Shown here piece by piece: positions 3 through 54,665 of a DNA stretch of 64,000 nt (positions are counted from its first letter, which is position 1; every line of letters begins with the position of its first letter). Position numbers and translations under genes: made by a program. Location of the stretch: positions 32,001 through 96,000 of the forward strand of contig CAXXIA010000001.1 in NCBI GenBank assembly GCA_963666985.2, in the 5' to 3' direction. The stretch comes from Spirochaetia bacterium. Its GTDB lineage: Bacteria; Spirochaetota; Spirochaetia; DSM-2461. The notes under the pieces are model-generated. The model saw only the letters and a program-made list of their open reading frames with translations, was not told the DNA's origin and did not search any database.

Positions 3-2750
3 CTGGAAGGAGCGGCGGCGAAAGGCGGCGAAGAAGCTTATTTTCTTCATCTGAGGGAACAATGCGAGCTGTATTCGGGAAACCCGTCTCCGGAGTATCG
101 GAAAAGGCTGTTCGAATTGATTTCCCGATACAAGAAACTCCGTCCTTCGGATGCGAGAGCCTTTGTTCTTGAGGGGGACTTGCTTCGTCATGAGGATCCG
201 GCGACGGCGAATATCGCATGGCGGAGCGCTTTGGTTTTGAACGAACGTCATGCGGACTCCTGGAACCGTTTGGGGATTCTTTATCGGGATTTATGGGAAC
301 GGGGAGATGATGAGTTCCGGGAAAATTGGCTCGAGAACTCCCGCGATGCGCTCACGAAAGCCGTATTCTTGAATCCTCTGGATTCTTACAACCGGATGCT
401 CTTGGGGATGGTGGAGCGGGAATCGGGCCGTTCGGTGAATGCGGTCGCCGTTCTTCGGGGAAGTTTGGCTCTGAACGATACCGATGAGACGGCACGCAGG
501 TGGCTGGCGATGAGCTGGCTGGATTTGTGTTATTCGGAAGATTTGGATGCATCGGCAAGAAGGGCGGCGGCCGAACGGGCCGCCGAGGAATGGAAACGTC
601 TGCTTAAAGACGAAGCTTCAACTTTTGACGTTTTGGGTTATGCGCGTTCTTTAGTGCTTTCGCGTGATGGAATCGAGGAATTGAAGGATCTTCTGAACGA
701 AATAGAAGACAATCTCGATCAATACAATCCGGCCGATCTTGTGATTTTGGCCGAGGACTGCATCGGCATGGAAGAAAGGGATCTCGGTTCTTATCTTCTG
801 GATCTTATTGAAGCGGTCTTGCCGCAGGAGCCGCGCATTCATGCTCTCAGAGGTGCCTTGGCGGAAGAAGAAGATCCGGCCGAATCGGTCCGCAGGTATT
901 TGACGGCCGCGAGCTCGGTTGATTCGGAGAATGAATTCTTTTGTGATTGGCTTTTGGGAGCGGCCTCGGCCGCACGAGCCGCGGCGGGAGCTGCGGATGC
1001 CGAGGCGATTCTGCGCGACGGTTTGAAGAGGAAAAAAGCCGACAGGACTCTTTTAAGGGCTTTGGCGTCGCTTCTGCTGGAAACCGGGCGCGCCCGCGAT
1101 GCCTTTGAAGAGTACCGGAAAGCGGTTGAGAGAACTCCGGAAGATTCGGATCTTTTGGAGGACGCCGTTTGGTTCGGCCGGGAGGCGGATTTGCCCGGGG
1201 ATGCCGAGACTCTGCTGCGGAAAATTCTGAAACTGCGCCCGGAAGATTCCCGTCTTTGGAATCAGCTTGGAATCCATCTGATGGAAAGCGGCTGGGATGA
1301 ATCGGCCGATTCGATGCGAAAGGAGATTCTTGAGGACGCCGTCGAAGCGTATGGAAAGGCCGTGGCTCTGTTTCCTGAAAATAAAGTGTACCTCGGTAAT
1401 CTCGGCGACGCATTAAGGCAGGCCGGCCGATGGATGGAATCGGCCGAACTGCTGCACCGAGCGGTGGCGGACACGGATGATGACGGGCCGGGTGCGTTCG
1501 CCGTGAATGCTTTGGCACGTTTGGAGGATGAAACTTCTTATGCGTTCGAAGGCAGTGATGAAGCGGCGGAGGATTGGATTTCCGCGGGGAACCATTATAG
1601 AAGAGCCGTAGAGCTCGATGGAGAAAATGTCGATTTCATCAAGGATTACGCATGGTGGCTGTACCGGGAGCGCCGTGTTGAAGATGCTCTTGATGTGTAT
1701 ATGCGTGCCGAAGAAATGGATCCTTCGGACGAAAGCATCCCCTACGGTATTTTTTCCTGCCGCCGCGATTTGGGCGATGAGGTTCGTGCCGCGAACGATT
1801 TGGATCGGGCCTTGGCCATAAGACCTGACGATCCTTTTTTTCTTGCGGACAAGGCTGATTTAACGGCGTCTTTGGGAGATTTCGAAAAAGCCGATGCGCT
1901 TTTCGATTCCATTATTGCGATTACGGAAAATGCTTCTTGGGCCTGGGAACGGCGGGCTCAGCTTCGGGAACGGTGCGCGGCGGAAGCCTCTGAAGCCGTT
2001 GTTCCTCCTCGTCTTTCTTCCGACTCGACCGGCGGTTTCGAATGGGATTTCGTTTCCCTTCCCGGACGAACCGCCGAAGGCGACCGGCGTCGTCGTGCCG
2101 CTTTGGAGGCATGGGGGCGGGTTTATTCGGCAAATCCGGATAATTCAAGAGTTGAAGGGCGTCTCGGCGCGGTTCTGATGGATTTGGGGAGGACTGAAGA
2201 AGCGCGAAAGCTGCTGGAAGCCTCCCTGGCACGGGGCGTTCATCCCTGGGATGCCGAATCGTTAAATCGTTTGGGACGGCTGGATATGTCCGACGCCTTG
2301 GCAACGGATGATGGAAGCAAATGGAGTTCCTCCGGGGAGCGGTTTGCCGCCGCCGTGCTTTCCGATCCTCTTACGGCTTCTTATTATGCGGATGCCGGGT
2401 ACAGGTATTGGCTGAAGAGGGAATTCGATGCGGCGGCGGATTCTTTTCTTAAAGCCCATGAACGTGAGTCTCAAATTCCCGAATACGCCGCGAACGCGGG
2501 TATCTGCGCCTCGGCGGCCGGACGTTACGAAGAGGCGGAAGTATTGCTTCGCCGGGCCTTGGCCCTCGGAGGGGAAAACGGTGAATGGGAGAATTCCCTC
2601 GGTTTGGTTCTTATGGCTTTGGGGGAAACGATCGGCGCGATAGAAGTGTTTCGAACAGCCTGTTTGAGCAATCCTGAAAACGATGTTTTCACCGCGAATC
2701 TTACAATGGCTCAGAGTTCTCTTTATATTCCTCATGGGCCTCTTCAGTAA
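3..2750 (+). CDS. Large tetratricopeptide-repeat protein, 5'-truncated by the window edge
   Basis: Many TPR-like helical repeats (e.g. ADSWNRLGILY, SRLWNQLGIHL, YLGNLGDAL, WENSLGLVL). The frame is open from position 3, so the TTG at 117 is not the true start. Confidence 0.8.
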   Translation: MEGAAAKGGEEAYFLHLREQCELYSGNPSPEYRKRLFELISRYKKLRPSDARAFVLEGDLLRHEDPATANIAWRSALVLNERHADSWNRLGILYRDLWERGDDEFRENWLENSRDALTKAVFLNPLDSYNRMLLGMVERESGRSVNAVAVLRGSLALNDTDETARRWLAMSWLDLCYSEDLDASARRAAAERAAEEWKRLLKDEASTFDVLGYARSLVLSRDGIEELKDLLNEIEDNLDQYNPADLVILAEDCIGMEERDLGSYLLDLIEAVLPQEPRIHALRGALAEEEDPAESVRRYLTAASSVDSENEFFCDWLLGAASAARAAAGAADAEAILRDGLKRKKADRTLLRALASLLLETGRARDAFEEYRKAVERTPEDSDLLEDAVWFGREADLPGDAETLLRKILKLRPEDSRLWNQLGIHLMESGWDESADSMRKEILEDAVEAYGKAVALFPENKVYLGNLGDALRQAGRWMESAELLHRAVADTDDDGPGAFAVNALARLEDETSYAFEGSDEAAEDWISAGNHYRRAVELDGENVDFIKDYAWWLYRERRVEDALDVYMRAEEMDPSDESIPYGIFSCRRDLGDEVRAANDLDRALAIRPDDPFFLADKADLTASLGDFEKADALFDSIIAITENASWAWERRAQLRERCAAEASEAVVPPRLSSDSTGGFEWDFVSLPGRTAEGDRRRRAALEAWGRVYSANPDNSRVEGRLGAVLMDLGRTEEARKLLEASLARGVHPWDAESLNRLGRLDMSDALATDDGSKWSSSGERFAAAVLSDPLTASYYADAGYRYWLKREFDAAADSFLKAHERESQIPEYAANAGICASAAGRYEEAEVLLRRALALGGENGEWENSLGLVLMALGETIGAIEVFRTACLSNPENDVFTANLTMAQSSLYIPHGPLQ

Positions 2751-2753
2751 TTT

Positions 2754-3677
2754 TTAGAACTTCCGACTCCGATCTTTTTTCTTTTGGCTCAAGAGAACAC
2801 CTAAGAGAACAACGGCGCTTCCGGTGATTTGAATCGGTGTAAGCCGTTCGTCCAGGAGCAGCCAGGCTCCGCAGGCGCTGACTACGGGAACCAAGTTGAT
2901 GAAAGATGAAGCCCTTGCGGCCGGGATGCGTCCCATGCTCCAGTTGTAGAGCCCGAAAGCGATGAGGGACGAAGCTGTTCCAAGGTAGAGGATGGGAAGA
3001 ATCGGCAGAGCGGAGAGTTCCATCCCGGATCGGATAATGCCGAACAGACCCGGGAGGAAGAAGAGTGCTCCCGCGGCCGTTTGAAGCGCCGTGAGCACCC
3101 ATGTACTGTATCGCCGGCATAATCCCCGTACGGCCACAAGATTTCCCGCGGCACAGATCATGGCAAGAAACTCCAGGGTATTTCCCAGAAACGGCCGGGA
3201 TGCCTTGCCGCCGGGATTCCCGCCGAACGTGATAATGGCGATTCCCGCGACGGCCAGAACCATGCCGAGGACCAGACGCTTGCCGAAAGGTTCCTTCAGA
3301 ACGGCCCATGCGCCCAATGCCGTTAAAATGGGTACCGTCGCCGATACCATTCCCGCCTGTGATGCCGTTGTAAATCGCAGGGCGTTGGATTCAAATAGAA
3401 AATAGATACAAGGCTGAAGCAAAACTGTCGGAAGCAGCAGTTTCCAATCGTTCTTTTTGTATGAGGATTGGAAGCTGAGGATGAATTTGGGCGTCAGAGG
3501 AAGAATGATGATGAAGGCGGTGAGTGATCTGAGGGACATCAGCCCGAAAGCACCGATTTCGGCAATCCCGCTTCTCATCGCCGCGAATGAGCCTCCCCAG
3601 AGGATAACCGCGGTAATGATGGCGGTATAGGGCAAAAGGGAAGATGAAGAGTTGGAAGTCGGTGCCTGTTTGTTCAT
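2754..3677 (-). CDS. DMT/EamA family transporter
   Basis: Ten hydrophobic segments, ILWGGSF, two EamA-like halves, 'ASSFINLVPV'. Start placed at ATG 3677. Confidence 0.85.
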   Translation of the reverse strand: MNKQAPTSNSSSSLLPYTAIITAVILWGGSFAAMRSGIAEIGAFGLMSLRSLTAFIIILPLTPKFILSFQSSYKKNDWKLLLPTVLLQPCIYFLFESNALRFTTASQAGMVSATVPILTALGAWAVLKEPFGKRLVLGMVLAVAGIAIITFGGNPGGKASRPFLGNTLEFLAMICAAGNLVAVRGLCRRYSTWVLTALQTAAGALFFLPGLFGIIRSGMELSALPILPILYLGTASSLIAFGLYNWSMGRIPAARASSFINLVPVVSACGAWLLLDERLTPIQITGSAVVLLGVLLSQKKKDRSRKF

Positions 3678-3770
3678 ATGGATTCGATTATGGCCTGAAA
3701 GCCTTGAGTCGGCCATCCCCGTATTCCGGAGAAGATTCCATGTTTATTATTCGAAGAAGCCAAAAGGGAT

Positions 3771-3818
3771 TTGACAATACAGGTTTTCTATAAGAAACTG
3801 AGTTTCTTATAGAAAACC
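3771..3818 (+). promoter_or_regulatory. TTGACA -35 element plus perfect 18-bp inverted repeat (putative IclR operator pair)
   Basis: TTGACA 3771-3776; ggttttctataagaaact (3782-3799)-g-agtttcttatagaaaacc (3801-3818). Confidence 0.75.
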
Positions 3819-3851
3819 GTCCTGTACGGTTTTCTTCCGATGGAGTTTTTT

Positions 3852-4619
3852 ATGCCCTCATATATCATCCCCGCTTTGGTTCAGAGTTTTTCCGTTATTC
3901 AATGCATCTCCGAAAATTCGGACGGGATTACTTTTTCCGACATCGTAGCGGAAACCGAAGTGCCGAAGTCCACGGTTTTCAGAATCCTTCATACTTTCGA
4001 GAATAATTCGTGGGTTGAAAAACGGGGGGATCGCTACCATCTCGGGTATATGTTTATCCACTACGGGCTTACAACGCTTTCGGGCCGTAGAATCGTCGAT
4101 ATAGCCGTACCGGTGTTGGATACTTTGGTGGAAAAGGTAGGGGAAACCGCGCATTTAGCCGTTTTGTCCGGTAAAAATTCCATGATTCTCGAAGTCCGTG
4201 AATCGAACAAACACATCAAATTAACCTCTTCGGCCGGCCAATTGCTCCCCTTATACTGCACTTCTCACGGAAAAATCTTTCTCGCGTACATCATTGGAAA
4301 CGATCTGGAAGGATTCTATTTCGGTGAAACCCTCGAAAAGCGTACTGAGCATACAATTACGGATTTATCGTCACTCAGAACCGAACTCCGGAAGATCAGG
4401 GTTCAAGGGTATTCGGTGGACAATCAGGAATATCACGAGAACGTCCGATGCTGCGCGGCTCCGATTTTCGACCGCAGCGGCGGCTGTATCGGGGCCATAG
4501 GAGTAACGGGAACAACGATGACGTGTACGAGTGAACGGATGGAGGAGATTTCCGTTTTGGTAAAGGATGCCGCCGCGGGAATCTCCAAACAGATGGGTTT
4601 AATAAAAAATCAACATTGA
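3852..4619 (+). CDS. IclR family transcriptional regulator
   Basis: N-terminal HTH (VPKSTVFRILHTF), 'GETAHL', 'PLYCTSHGK', 'CCAAPIFD'. GGAG at 3842-3845 favours ATG 3852. Confidence 0.92.
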   Translation: MPSYIIPALVQSFSVIQCISENSDGITFSDIVAETEVPKSTVFRILHTFENNSWVEKRGDRYHLGYMFIHYGLTTLSGRRIVDIAVPVLDTLVEKVGETAHLAVLSGKNSMILEVRESNKHIKLTSSAGQLLPLYCTSHGKIFLAYIIGNDLEGFYFGETLEKRTEHTITDLSSLRTELRKIRVQGYSVDNQEYHENVRCCAAPIFDRSGGCIGAIGVTGTTMTCTSERMEEISVLVKDAAAGISKQMGLIKNQH

Positions 4620-19453: not shown

Positions 19454-19485
19454 AAAAAAAAGGCTTTGCGACCTGCGCAAAGGCT
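19454..19485 (-). terminator. Intrinsic terminator after the duplicated tRNA-Asn 3' end
   Basis: Minus strand gcctttgcg-caggt-cgcaaagcc followed by a T tract. Confidence 0.65.
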
Positions 19486-19708
19486 CTTCTCCCCCGGACA
19501 GACTCGCCCTTCACTTCGGGAACATCGTGTTCCCTCGTTTAGGGACGCCTCGTCATCTTTCGCCGCATCCTGCGGGCTCAGCGCTCCAAGTATTCGCGCC
19601 CGACTCCTCACTTCGAGTCTTTCAGAGAGGTCCGTTACATACGAATTGTTATAAAAAAAAATAAGCCTGACACTGCTGTGTCAGGCTCTTCTCCCCCGGA
19701 CAGACTCG
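19481..19708. repeat. 26-bp direct repeat (tRNA-Asn 3' end plus 8 flanking nt) enclosing a structured element
   Basis: aggctcttctcccccggacagactcg at 19481-19506 and 19683-19708. Confidence 0.9.
19653..19687 (-). terminator. Intrinsic terminator of tRNA-Asn
   Basis: agcctgacac-tgct-gtgtcaggct stem with a T-rich tail on the minus strand. Confidence 0.8.
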
Positions 19709-19763
19709 AACTGCCGACCTAGTGGTTAACAGCCACCCGCTCTACCAACTGAGCTACAGGGGA
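19691..19763 (-). tRNA. tRNA-Asn (GTT), CCA not encoded
   Basis: Cloverleaf TCCCCTG/CGGGGGA acceptor, GGTGG-CTGTTAA-CCACT anticodon arm, TTCGAGT T-loop. Promoter TTGACA (19806-19801)-17-TATATT. Confidence 0.97.
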
Positions 19764-19959
19764 ATGACGTGATGCCGAATATATCGAAATCCCGAATTCG
19801 TGTCAACACAATCATGTTCAATAGCTCGATTTCCCTTGCAGGGAAGGATTAAGCCCCCCTGCATGCGAGCCGTTTCGTCCTATATCCGGCCGGTATTTCC
19901 GGAGAAGCGCAAAAGCGGTTAACCGCGGACGCTTTCCGCCGGATCATCTTTTTTTTCGG

Positions 19960-53222: not shown

Positions 53223-54032
53223 CTATCGATATTCCAATGAGTGACTGAAAAGCCACGGGAAGAGCGCCTCATCCGTATAACAGGGGCCGGGTGTGTGTCC
53301 CATCCCTGTGTATTCACTGTATTTGAACATGGGATGGAAGATGCGTGTGAGTGTGACGGTCGTTCGTTCATATCCTGTGAAGGTATCGGAAGCCGATGTT
53401 TCAAAGGCGCATGCGTTGCATGCATAGGAACGCATGTTTTCCAGGGCTTCTCGGGCAACCTCGACTCTGGTTTCGGTATCGGAGAGACCGATGTGATACC
53501 AAAGGGCGGTTTTCTTTGCAATGTCGTTTCCCAAATCGGACTGACTCTGACCGGCAACCCGAATAATGGCCGCAAAGTACAGATTCTCCGCATACAGCCC
53601 CTTGGCCAAAGGATAGCTGCCCGATTCTCCGGCGGAAAATCCGGTTAAATAGAGACGGTTTGTATCAATCCTGAACCCTGCGTCTATGGCGCTTTTAATC
53701 CATTCTCCCAGAGCCTGTCCGTCGGACTCAGAGGTCTGCTGATAATCAATAACGAAGGCCGGATAGACCTGTGCCGCCCGGCTGTAATAATAACTTTGTC
53801 CCTCTCCCCAGCAGCCGGAAACCAAGAGGGGGTATTTTCGAAAGGCATTTTCGAACTTTTCGTATCCCCAGGGAGTAAAAAAACTCAGCCCTTCGTGAAT
53901 TACTTCCTCCGGAGCATCGGCGTCTTCGAAGGTCTCTTCTTGAGTTTGAGCGAAATTGTTGTCCCACGGATTGACGCATGAACAAAGAGAAGAAAGGCAG
54001 ATGAGGGCAAAGACTCTGTTTCCGATTTTCAT
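53223..54032 (-). CDS. Putative lipoprotein alpha/beta-hydrolase (esterase-like)
   Basis: N-terminal LCSC; IDTNRLYLTGFSAG nucleophile elbow; 'EYTGMGH...WLFSH' C-terminus. Confidence 0.65.
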   Translation of the reverse strand: MKIGNRVFALICLSSLCSCVNPWDNNFAQTQEETFEDADAPEEVIHEGLSFFTPWGYEKFENAFRKYPLLVSGCWGEGQSYYYSRAAQVYPAFVIDYQQTSESDGQALGEWIKSAIDAGFRIDTNRLYLTGFSAGESGSYPLAKGLYAENLYFAAIIRVAGQSQSDLGNDIAKKTALWYHIGLSDTETRVEVAREALENMRSYACNACAFETSASDTFTGYERTTVTLTRIFHPMFKYSEYTGMGHTPGPCYTDEALFPWLFSHSLEYR

Positions 54033-54136
54033 TTTCTTCCTTGTTTCAGGAAAAAATAGCGCGTTTTTTCGTTATGTCCAAGGCCTCAAAGGGGCTTACA
54101 AGATGTGCTGGGGAAAGGTTCGTGAAGTTGTGTTTT

Positions 54137-54341
54137 TGGCGGGAGGGCAGGACTCGCCTTCCACTCGCCGTCGTCGTGACGGCTCCTTCCAGGCCGCTGG
54201 TTCAACCTTCCTCGACTTGCTGTCTCGGATCGCTTCCTATTCGGTCGCGACCGGTTTCACCCTTCGAGTCCTTTTTATCGACAAAAAAAGACCGGAAGCC
54301 CTTTTTAGGACATCCGGTCTTTTTAGCAGGGGCAGGACTCG
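54137..54341. repeat. Partial tRNA 3'-end copy and structured element downstream of tRNA-fMet
   Basis: gggcaggactcg at 54145-54156 and 54330-54341; the minus-strand copy ends CGAGTCCTGCCCTCCCGCCA. Confidence 0.75.
54283..54324 (-). terminator. Intrinsic terminator of tRNA-fMet
   Basis: aaaaagaccgga...tccggtcttttt stem with T tract. Confidence 0.8.
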
Positions 54342-54396
54342 AACCTGCGACCTCCGGGTTATGAGCCCGACGAGCTGCCAACTGCTCTACCCTGCG
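54324..54396 (-). tRNA. Initiator tRNA-fMet (CAT), CCA not encoded
   Basis: C1:U72 mismatch, GGG/CCC anticodon stem around CTCATAA, TTCGAGT T-loop. Promoter TTGACA (54437-54432)-17-TATCTT. Confidence 0.96.
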
Positions 54397-54665
54397 GCGT
54401 GCCTGAAGAAGATATCGACGTAAGGAATAAATGTCAACCGAAGCGGAAAATATTCTTGGAATCTCGTTGCGTTTGAGTGTTCTTGAGAGGATTGAAGACC
54501 TTCGGAAACCGAATGGAAGGAGTCTTCTTTTTGAGAATGTAATAATCCTGATTCAGCGGTGCGGCTCGGTGTGTTCCTGAACCGCCGGTCCTCCGGAGAG
54601 AGGTCCGGCAGAAGAGTTTTGAAGTTGAGAAGGCGCTTCAATGGTGCTTAGGGCTTTATTCTCTT

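Follow-up and report, generated by a model that had tools for sequence, protein, structure and literature searches.

The 122 nt that lie behind tRNA-fMet in the window (the whole 64,000-nt stretch of Spirochaetia DNA that was analysed) form one copy, here called copy B, of a genome-wide, structure-conserved family tied to tRNA genes. The original prediction had supposed such a family from two copies alone, and it is borne out by 28 copies with a fold backed by covariation. With a probability of about 0.5, copy B belongs to a multi-copy family of small, non-coding, non-autonomous elements that are, or recently were, mobile and that are specific to the 3' flanks of tRNA and tmRNA genes in Spirochaetota. 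The family is apparently undescribed. A literature search (titles and abstract openings) returned no description of such an element, and only tRNAs passed the gathering score of Rfam in the 2 kb around copy B and at eight other loci.

Copies A and B and their host tRNA genes

Both tRNA genes of the window, tRNA-Asn and tRNA-fMet, are followed by an element that matches the covariance model of the family, as had been proposed, and the motif order common to the two copies was verified in the sequence. The features are listed below; the trailer hairpin, the spacer and the 3' arm with its tail were read directly from the sequence.

54409..54437, minus strand: sigma-70-like promoter of tRNA-fMet, TTGACA-17-TATCTT (sequence scan)
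54324..54396, minus strand: tRNA-fMet (CAU), host gene of copy B (62.1 bits to RF00005)
54283..54323, minus strand: trailer hairpin and T-run, terminator-like (stem 54290-54296 / 54313-54319, 16-nt loop)
54272..54282, minus strand: 11-nt spacer from the terminator-like hairpin to the element
54262..54271, minus strand: 5' arm GGACTCGAAG, antisense of the tRNA-fMet T-loop TTCGAGTCC
54157..54261, minus strand: conserved scaffold, ~105 nt (covariance model and alignment)
54253-54261 with 54199-54211, minus strand: helix P2 of copy B
54228-54252, minus strand: hairpin P3 of copy B, with GA pairs and a GAATA loop
54210-54227, minus strand: hairpin P4 of copy B
54189-54201, minus strand: ACCAGCGGCCTGG junction with P6, copy B
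54167-54183, minus strand: hairpin P5 of copy B, CACGA loop
54157-54166, minus strand: GAGTGGAAGG, scaffold 3' end of copy B
54137..54156, minus strand: 3' arm and tail CGAGTCCTGCCCTCCCGCCA, 20 nt
19494..19627, minus strand: copy A of the same family, behind tRNA-Asn (19690-19764, minus strand); 76.4 bits to the covariance model

Copy B has the same sense as tRNA-fMet and is closed over 122 nt by GGACTCG and CGAGTCC, with coordinates and letters as first described. Within the 5' arm, GGACTCG is the 5' strand of the closing helix P1 and GAAG is a conserved purine motif, while CGAGTCC (54150-54156, minus strand) supplies the 3' strand of P1. The T-loop and 3' end of tRNA-fMet read GGTTCGAGTCCTGCCCCTGCTA; the tail of copy B repeats 12 nt of this gene from T-loop position 57 (CGAGTCCTGCCC) and then diverges, as had been noticed. 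The further suggestion that the diverged part resembles the end of another tRNA was not confirmed: the last 8 nt of the tail match none of the 48 tRNAs of the genome and not its tmRNA, and TTCGAGTCCTGCCCTCCCGC, with at most one mismatch allowed, occurs in none of the 301 genomes sampled from the class. The promoter of tRNA-fMet is the sole promoter-like site on the minus strand near copy B, and the promoter scan gave no such site on this strand between tRNA-fMet and copy B. The trailer hairpin (54283-54323) was missed by the terminator consensus scan because of its long loop.

Copy A has the closing arms AGACTCG and CGAGTCT and shares the motif order of copy B. Its tail is an exact 25-nt repeat of the end of tRNA-Asn (19482-19506 equals 19684-19708), and two terminators flank the copy (19663-19688 and 19464-19482).

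Distribution of the family

Further copies were gathered by a regular-expression scan, BLAST and nhmmer, and a covariance model was built from 31 copies. The 4.86-Mb genome gives 28 matches to this model, behind 17 of its 49 tRNA and tmRNA genes, and copy B (114.1 bits) is among the best. Thirteen copies lie at most 155 nt behind a tRNA gene on the same strand, and eight are further units of tandem arrays (Gly-ccc, Leu-cag and Pro-cgg). Three are parted from the tRNA by a 1.7-kb IS sitting in the terminator, two are parted from their host genes, tRNA-Val(cac) and tmRNA, by integrase islands, and two (C1:405463 and C2:2750261) have no explained position. The orientation of the element is always that of the tRNA.

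The family is patchy among relatives: BLAST finds it in 11 of 41, the own genome counted, and of 151 genomes in a sample of the phylum, 12 have matches to the covariance model. Among the matches in other genomes and at other loci, 69 of 74 have a tRNA or tmRNA gene upstream on the same strand, and four of the other five lie at or near contig ends. The presence of the element behind other tRNAs of the lineage, foreseen in the original prediction, is therefore seen both within the genome and beyond it. A pattern scan of metagenome contigs added 66 matches, with copies on Spirochaetales contigs; a tRNA lies within 700 nt upstream in 50 of these, and seven more have less than 200 nt of contig on the upstream side. 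For a species-genome collection, 2 of the 80 loci among the matches listed are real, both in Spirochaetales MAGs, which has little bearing on other phyla; a weak match in this collection (L131, E = 9e-4) was regarded as chance. In viral contigs, none of the 29 pattern matches is real by the covariance model.

Conserved fold

Against shuffled controls the expected common structure held for the family, though single copies fold as DNA only weakly better than their shuffles (z = -1.5/-1.3 for copy B and -2.3/-2.5 for copy A); per 200 shuffles, 14 and 21 folded as well as copy B, and 5 and 1 as well as copy A. As single copies barely beat shuffles, the case for the fold rests on the comparison between copies. 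When 31 copies are aligned by MAFFT only and a structure of 34 pairs drawn by hand is applied, 83.2% of the cells are paired, against 30-43% with the partners slid, and 205 cells have double changes. The covariation score of this alignment, 0.469 (0.07-0.14 slid), was reached by 0 of 500 shuffles. For 71 distinct copies aligned to the model, an alignment that is fitted to the model and leans to it, 85.2% of the cells are paired (33-44% slid), and the covariation score of 0.512 (at most 0.10 slid) was likewise reached by 0 of 500 shuffles.

A multi-helix fold is thus supported. It consists of P1, formed by the two arms, and of P2, P3, P4, P5 and P6, the closing and inner helices together covering ~120-135 nt. 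P3 is a hairpin with tandem G-A pairs and a (G)AATA loop, the loops of P4 and P5 are C-AGGAT-G and C-ACGAN-G, and P6 is CCY/RGG. The scaffold also contains the conserved purine stretches GAAG, GGAAG and GRAGG.

Arms matched to the host tRNA

Together, the 3' arm and tail repeat the host tRNA in direct orientation, always from T-loop position 57 onwards, after GGTTC. The far end of the repeat is variable (6 to ~85 nt), lying at the discriminator base or continuing on through the terminator. Most copies have repeats of 17-25 nt and copy B has 12 nt; longer repeats are found at Glu-ctc (47 nt), Val-cac (~55 nt) and one G079 locus (~85 nt). The 5' arm is antisense of the host T-loop and of the 3' strand of the T-stem, sometimes also of part of the acceptor strand, over 6-17 nt. 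The terminal inverted arms, of 6-17 bp, thus copy the host tRNA and not an IS end.

The match is specific to the host in 15 of the 28 copies, where the repeat extends over 17-19 nt for the host tRNA and over at most 10 nt for any other. The antisense arm matches the host over 13-17 nt at Gly-ccc, 16 nt at Leu-cag and 12 nt at Pro-ggg, against 9-12 nt for other tRNAs, and at the fMet loci of other genomes it covers 13-17 nt, even where the distal repeat has 6-8 nt. For copy B, several tRNAs match the 10-nt antisense arm to the same extent, and the repeat covers 12 nt for tRNA-fMet against 11 nt for the best other tRNA. The earlier claim that the termini are matched to the host tRNA is therefore sound for the family and thin for copy B, where the matches are short and the claim is carried by the other copies.

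Signs of movement and turnover

Comparison of arrays and genomes shows that the element has been gained, lost and moved from one tRNA to another, its arms being rematched. Behind tRNA-Gly(ccc) stand five near-identical units with a spacing of 187 bp, together with a sixth unit from the other scaffold clade. The scaffold tree has two clades (support 97), which are mixed behind one tRNA in the arrays at Arg-tcg, Gly-ccc and Leu-cag, and relatedness in it does not go with the identity of the tRNA: it requires 43 changes of tRNA label for 26 groups (minimum 25; shuffled mean 48.9). Sister copies occur on different tRNAs of one genome (Met and Gly in G149, Ser-tga and Ser-gct in G079, Val and Glu in G156); in the G079 pair, near-identical scaffolds stand behind tRNA-Ser(tga) and tRNA-Ser(gct), each with the repeat of its own host. 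Five congeneric genomes have an identical tRNA-fMet and no element there, and the sets of occupied tRNAs in three genomes of another genus do not overlap. The arrays, the presence and absence among congeners and the sister copies on different tRNAs together argue for a non-autonomous mobile element.

Direct traces of movement were not seen in the contigs of two samples or in congeners, where neither a circle nor an excision joint nor an empty site with preserved flanks turned up. The contigs of the second sample carry copy B, with 11 other letters and one gap over 53224-54352, and are uninformative on excision. The gene flanking copy A has no syntenic counterpart in 13 congeners, synteny around this copy being lost.

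Neighbouring genes and candidate enzymes

Copy B had been taken for the start of an accessory region of ~11 kb, which is not supported by the genes found there. The ORFs at 43.3-54.0 kb encode a glycyl-radical enzyme and its activase, parts of a sugar ABC transporter, a GntR/LacI regulator and unknown proteins, that is, ordinary metabolic genes. None of them encodes an integrase or transposase, and the tRNA-fMet 3' end does not recur anywhere in the genome as a second repeat. The idea that the element may seed islands is not supported either, since the two integrase-bearing islands of the genome (at tmRNA and tRNA-Val(cac)) both sit between the host gene and a pre-existing element, and their repeats start at GGTTCGA..., as opposed to position 57 for the element. 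Lying upstream of an intact element and having a different repeat boundary, these islands leave the element as a bystander.

The units are 137-210 bp long and contain no ORF. No recurrent gene lies beside the elements, either in the own genome or at six metagenome loci without a nearby tRNA, where the neighbours are IS110, HTH/ParA, ABC transporter, sugar kinase and AEP-TOTE genes. No parent or autonomous, gene-bearing form was found in the own genome, at 80 genome loci among the matches listed, at 29 viral loci or at 80 metagenome loci. The genome has seven integrase-family genes, all elsewhere or in separate islands, and XerC- and XerD-like genes are present.

Several candidate mobilisers were rejected. 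A XerA/integron-like recombinase (C2:1777133-1777966) lies away from the copies, and its homologues do not track the family among the 41 relatives; none of the other tyrosine recombinases lies beside the arrays. Y1 transposase and TnpB are absent, with no matches to PF01797 and PF07282 in the 93%-complete genome. IS110 is represented by a single gene (C2:2685396-2686535), with no model match at its locus, and reverse transcriptase by a single defence-like locus, unlinked to the family. Of IS91/Y2, the genome keeps a truncated N-terminal remnant only, and the occurrence of Y2 in 14 of the 41 relatives has no correlation with the family. At metagenome locus L279, an opposite-strand IS110 insertion separates the tRNA from the elements.

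Proposed mechanism of insertion

A unit of the family comprises the tRNA repeat from position 57 (often through the terminator), a short spacer, the antisense arm and the ~105-nt scaffold with its 5-6 helices. Such units are stacked in tandem behind the tRNA, the array being closed by a last copy of the tRNA 3' end. By analogy with known folded sites, the preferred though quite tentative mechanism is that the element moves as a folded single strand. A circular single strand would fold so that P1, made of the antisense arm and the repeat, mimics the duplex of the T-loop region of the tRNA gene; exchange of a single strand, catalysed by a trans-acting recombinase, would take place at the fixed T-loop junction 56|57, and replication would do the rest. 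The insertion would thereby place the tRNA 3' end, terminator, spacer, arm and scaffold in the gene, the tRNA staying intact. Repeated insertion might then build arrays, with the displaced old 3' end free to decay. The arms might be kept matched or rematched by selection, as only cognate insertions would keep the tRNA alive, or by template switching between closely spaced inverted and direct repeats, which is a known mechanism. Phage CTX with XerCD (PMC3442271) and integrons, at their attC sites (PMC4792948), are established cases in which folded single-stranded DNA exchanges one strand with a duplex target; in integrons the exchange is resolved by replication.

The fixed start of the repeat at position 57 and its variable far end are as a single-strand exchange at a fixed point of a folded site would leave them. 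The order of the parts within a unit, and a closing helix copied from the target duplex, are also as expected from such a route. Further evidence on the side of DNA is that no promoter-like site precedes copy A or copy B and that both lie behind a terminator or terminator-like hairpin. Simple insertion, on the other hand, predicts that the distal tail is the original end of the tRNA, which conflicts with copy B and the G012 array, where it is not. Conservation extends to many unpaired positions of the scaffold, which on the tRNA-sense strand are rich in purines, as is usual for functional RNAs. The score of copy B (114 bits) despite its diverged tail hints at selection on the scaffold in place and not at neutral decay.

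A bolder reading, which is unlikely, would make the family a programmable homing device: the scaffold would present antisense and sense copies of the T-loop region, and a host or trans-acting enzyme would insert the unit at 56|57 of whichever tRNA or tmRNA gene the arms specify, the arms being rewritten from the new target at each jump. If true, this would be nucleic-acid-guided, tRNA-directed insertion by an element with no dedicated gene, of a kind so far undescribed.

Comparison with known systems

The attC sites of integrons are imperfect palindromes of 57-141 nt that work as a folded single strand. The element, with its ~120-135 nt, is likewise an imperfect palindrome able to fold as a single strand, its junction is placed at the base of the closing helix as in attC, and its units, like integron cassettes, form a head-to-tail array beside one fixed primary site. 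Unlike in integrons, this primary site is the T-loop of a tRNA or tmRNA gene and not attI, no intI or other tyrosine recombinase lies beside the arrays, and the cargo is only the tRNA 3' end with the terminator, or nothing (the G012 array). The element has no counterpart of the attC core boxes R''/R' (RYYYAAC ... GTTRRRY); its ends are GGACTCGAAG ... GRAGG(C)GAGTCC and vary with the host tRNA. Its hairpin interior is conserved in sequence, whereas the interiors of attC vary. The proposed single-strand exchange resolved by replication would be a further likeness to integrons (PMC4792948).

The element and the Xer-exploiting elements of the CTX type, which form tandem arrays at their target, have such arrays in common. 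The target of the element is the tRNA T-loop and not dif, and, being gene-less, the element lacks its own means of making single strands. XerC and XerD genes are present in most bacteria, and a role for them here is purely conjectural. As in the CTX-type elements, there is no own integrase, and a folded strand is proposed to mimic the duplex target, with one strand pair exchanged (PMC3442271).

With tRNA-targeting islands and their cis-mobilisable, gene-less derivatives the element shares its position at the 3' part of tRNA and tmRNA genes, a replacement 3' end that keeps the tRNA whole, flanking direct repeats and tandem accretion. It differs from them in being 100 times smaller, in having no integrase inside or nearby, and in its covarying folded scaffold with an extra inverted copy of the target. 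Position 57 as the boundary of the repeat also sets it apart from the integrase islands of the same genome. Phages and islands classically land at tRNA and tmRNA genes, for reasons that are debated.

The target of IS91 is GTTC/CTTG, and the fixed start of the element lies right after GTTC (T-loops GGTTC|R). This junction after GGTTC, found in all copies, is not diagnostic of IS91, because every tRNA has GGTTC. The variable far end, the partial last units and a hairpin (P5) ~12 nt before the 3' end are as in IS91; unlike IS91 systems, the genome has only a truncated remnant, and the Y2 transposases of its relatives do not track the family. A MITE would share the terminal inverted repeats, though those of the element are copied from the host tRNA; unlike a MITE, the element has no short target-site duplication of constant length, its repeat of 6 to ~85 nt having one fixed and one variable end, and no parent IS with the same ends was found at the loci named above. 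An IS110 bridge RNA would differ in lying at the DEDD recombinase gene, where the single IS110 locus of the genome has no element, and the absence of Y1 transposase and TnpB from the genome sets the element apart from IS200/IS605 derivatives and omega RNA.

The combination of tRNA-targeting insertion, cassette-like arrays and a folded recombination site seems to be new. Should a folded single strand be the recombining form, the principle of attC and CTX would reach to tRNA genes, and the element would provide a minimal model of how T-loops are recognised as sites of recombination.

Alternative explanations

The family might instead be a structured non-coding RNA of the tRNA transcription unit, which is rather unlikely. 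The scaffold would bind a protein, and the RNA would control or check the 3' maturation of the tRNA or act in trans. It would arise by read-through of the first terminator, and its 5' arm could base-pair either with the upstream tRNA, from T-loop to acceptor, or with the 3' copy in the RNA itself. The conserved fold with its many compensatory changes would suit an RNA, as would the purine-rich unpaired motifs on the tRNA-sense strand (GAAG, GGAAG, C-AGGAT-G and C-ACGAN-G), the constant orientation with the tRNA, and the RNA folding energies, which in three copies favour the tRNA-sense strand (-43.6, -45.5 and -48.9 against -35.9, -38.0 and -37.7 kcal/mol). The fMet loci of other genomes, which keep 13-17 nt of complementarity even though their distal repeat is 6-8 nt, and the intact scaffold of copy B despite its diverged tail point in the same direction. 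In the well-aligned helices, however, G-U pairs are not in excess (33 G-U against 25 A-C of 1519 cells), which is unlike most RNA families and weakly favours a DNA structure, an argument of little weight because both kinds of pair are rare. The position behind a terminator, with no promoter-like site, the lack of a match to any Rfam family, the absence behind the identical tRNA-fMet of five congeners and the differing occupancy within one genus also speak against a tRNA-linked RNA, and a housekeeping RNA would not be expected to occur as tandem identical units or in arrays of mixed clades. Were the family an RNA nevertheless, Spirochaetota would have in it a widespread class of tRNA-linked RNA. 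Among other RNA types, a retron was rejected for having no adjacent reverse transcriptase, and tmRNA, Y-RNA or another tRNA-like RNA for the lack of acceptor pairing and of an Rfam match. A C/D-box-like guide was likewise set aside, as bacteria are not known to have machinery for it.

It is improbable that the element serves a programmable recombinase or transposase as a guide-type RNA or DNA, in the style of the IS110 bridge RNA or the TnpB omega RNA. Here the scaffold would bind the enzyme, the arms would specify the tRNA gene, and gene-less copies would be mobilised in trans. Such a guide would account for a scaffold with variable, target-matched arms that change with the host while related scaffolds stand on different tRNAs. 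The sense tail directly after the scaffold would resemble the guide that directly follows the scaffold in omega RNA, and the genome does have one IS110-family gene, described as an 'RNA-guided transposase'. Yet the IS110 locus has no model match, no DEDD, TnpB or IscB gene lies beside any examined copy, the genome encodes no TnpB domain, and a promoter-like site is again missing. Moreover, both arms cover the same target positions and pair together, unlike the guides of a bridge RNA, which flank a core.

That the copies are scars of integrase-borne islands, the repeat being attR and the scaffold an attP arm that survived gene deletion, is very improbable: direct repeats of the tRNA 3' end starting in the T-loop are typical of integrase-mediated insertion, and genuine integrase islands do exist at tmRNA and tRNA-Val(cac), but one and the same ~105-nt scaffold, its helices covarying, is found behind 17 genes of this genome and throughout the phylum, no examined copy has an integrase between tRNA and scaffold, the genuine islands use the other boundary upstream of an intact element, and it is implausible that an identical deletion should have happened again and again. 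Repeats of tRNA 3' ends and the arrays can mislead island finders and tRNA annotation, and can break assemblies at tRNA loci.

Integrase islands at tmRNA and tRNA-Val(cac)

The genome under study contains two integrase islands, one on each of its contigs C1 and C2:

C1:798190-837254, tmRNA island, about 39 kb
C2:2042526-2049366, tRNA-Val(cac) island, about 6.8 kb

The integrase gene of the former (C1:835898-837160) adjoins the tmRNA gene. A 22-nt repeat of the tmRNA 3' end (GGTTCGATTCCCCCCACCTCCA) is located at C1:~798190, with the old terminator and a copy of the element immediately downstream of it. The tRNA-Val(cac) island carries an integrase gene (C2:2042612-2043778) and one IS copy, and ends with a tRNA-Val fragment of ~50 nt that begins in the anticodon arm and precedes element copy E.

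Other inserts and enzyme genes

A second type of insert in this genome, distinct from the element and shorter (about 70-80 nt), starts with GAGAGCGAGG... or GAAGTTGAGAGCC... and was found at the following sites:

C1:416800-417200, shorter insert
C1:405380-405500, shorter insert
C1:976138, tRNA-Gly(tcc), with the shorter insert immediately 3' of it

Its flanking direct repeats cover the tRNA-Gly acceptor 3' strand only (CATCAGGCGCT), and it is nested among the element units of tRNA-Gly(ccc).

The same genome harbours 14 copies (99.9-100% identity) of a 1.73-kb IS encoding a DDE_Tnp_1_6/DUF772 transposase of 526 aa, for example:

C2:2634200-2635930, IS copy
C1:337006-338736, IS copy
C1:405610-407337, IS copy

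This IS is inserted inside terminator hairpins with duplication of AAAAGGGGCTGTCTC, and three of its copies separate a tRNA from its element.

Further enzyme genes were identified in this genome and in its relatives:

C2:1836621-1838538 (2122-4039 of extracted locus L201), reverse transcriptase of 308 aa and a 334-aa ORF
G015:C1:1403036-1404829, Y2 transposase and XerA/integron-like recombinase

The 334-aa ORF, located immediately ahead of the reverse transcriptase gene, gave no family match; the two resemble a retron- or defence-type pair, and are neighboured by an IS481-type transposase. In several relatives (G015, G022, G038), genes of IS91-type Y2 transposases adjoin a gene of a small XerA/integron-like tyrosine recombinase.

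Unit arrangements in other genomes and variability upstream of tRNA-fMet

Two loci of other genomes show the following arrangements:

L008 (G012:C1) 1496-2038, four element units spaced at 137 bp
L007 (G019:C10) 1687-1905, tandem pair of tRNA-fMet genes lying 146 bp apart, then element units

The units of L008 have no intervening terminators. The tail of one and the following unit's arm together make up a near-perfect palindrome of 32 nt (CAAGTCCCTGTGCGG TA CCGCACAGGGACTTG), and within units arms and tails are mismatched. In L007, a complete unit comes after the tRNA-fMet pair, and then another one that is truncated about 20 nt into its scaffold.

In the window, the intergenic stretch 54440-54600, on the upstream side of the tRNA-fMet promoter, differs between the two samples by 10 substitutions, a 1-nt deletion and a 21-nt deletion, and is more variable between them than the element region downstream of tRNA-fMet.
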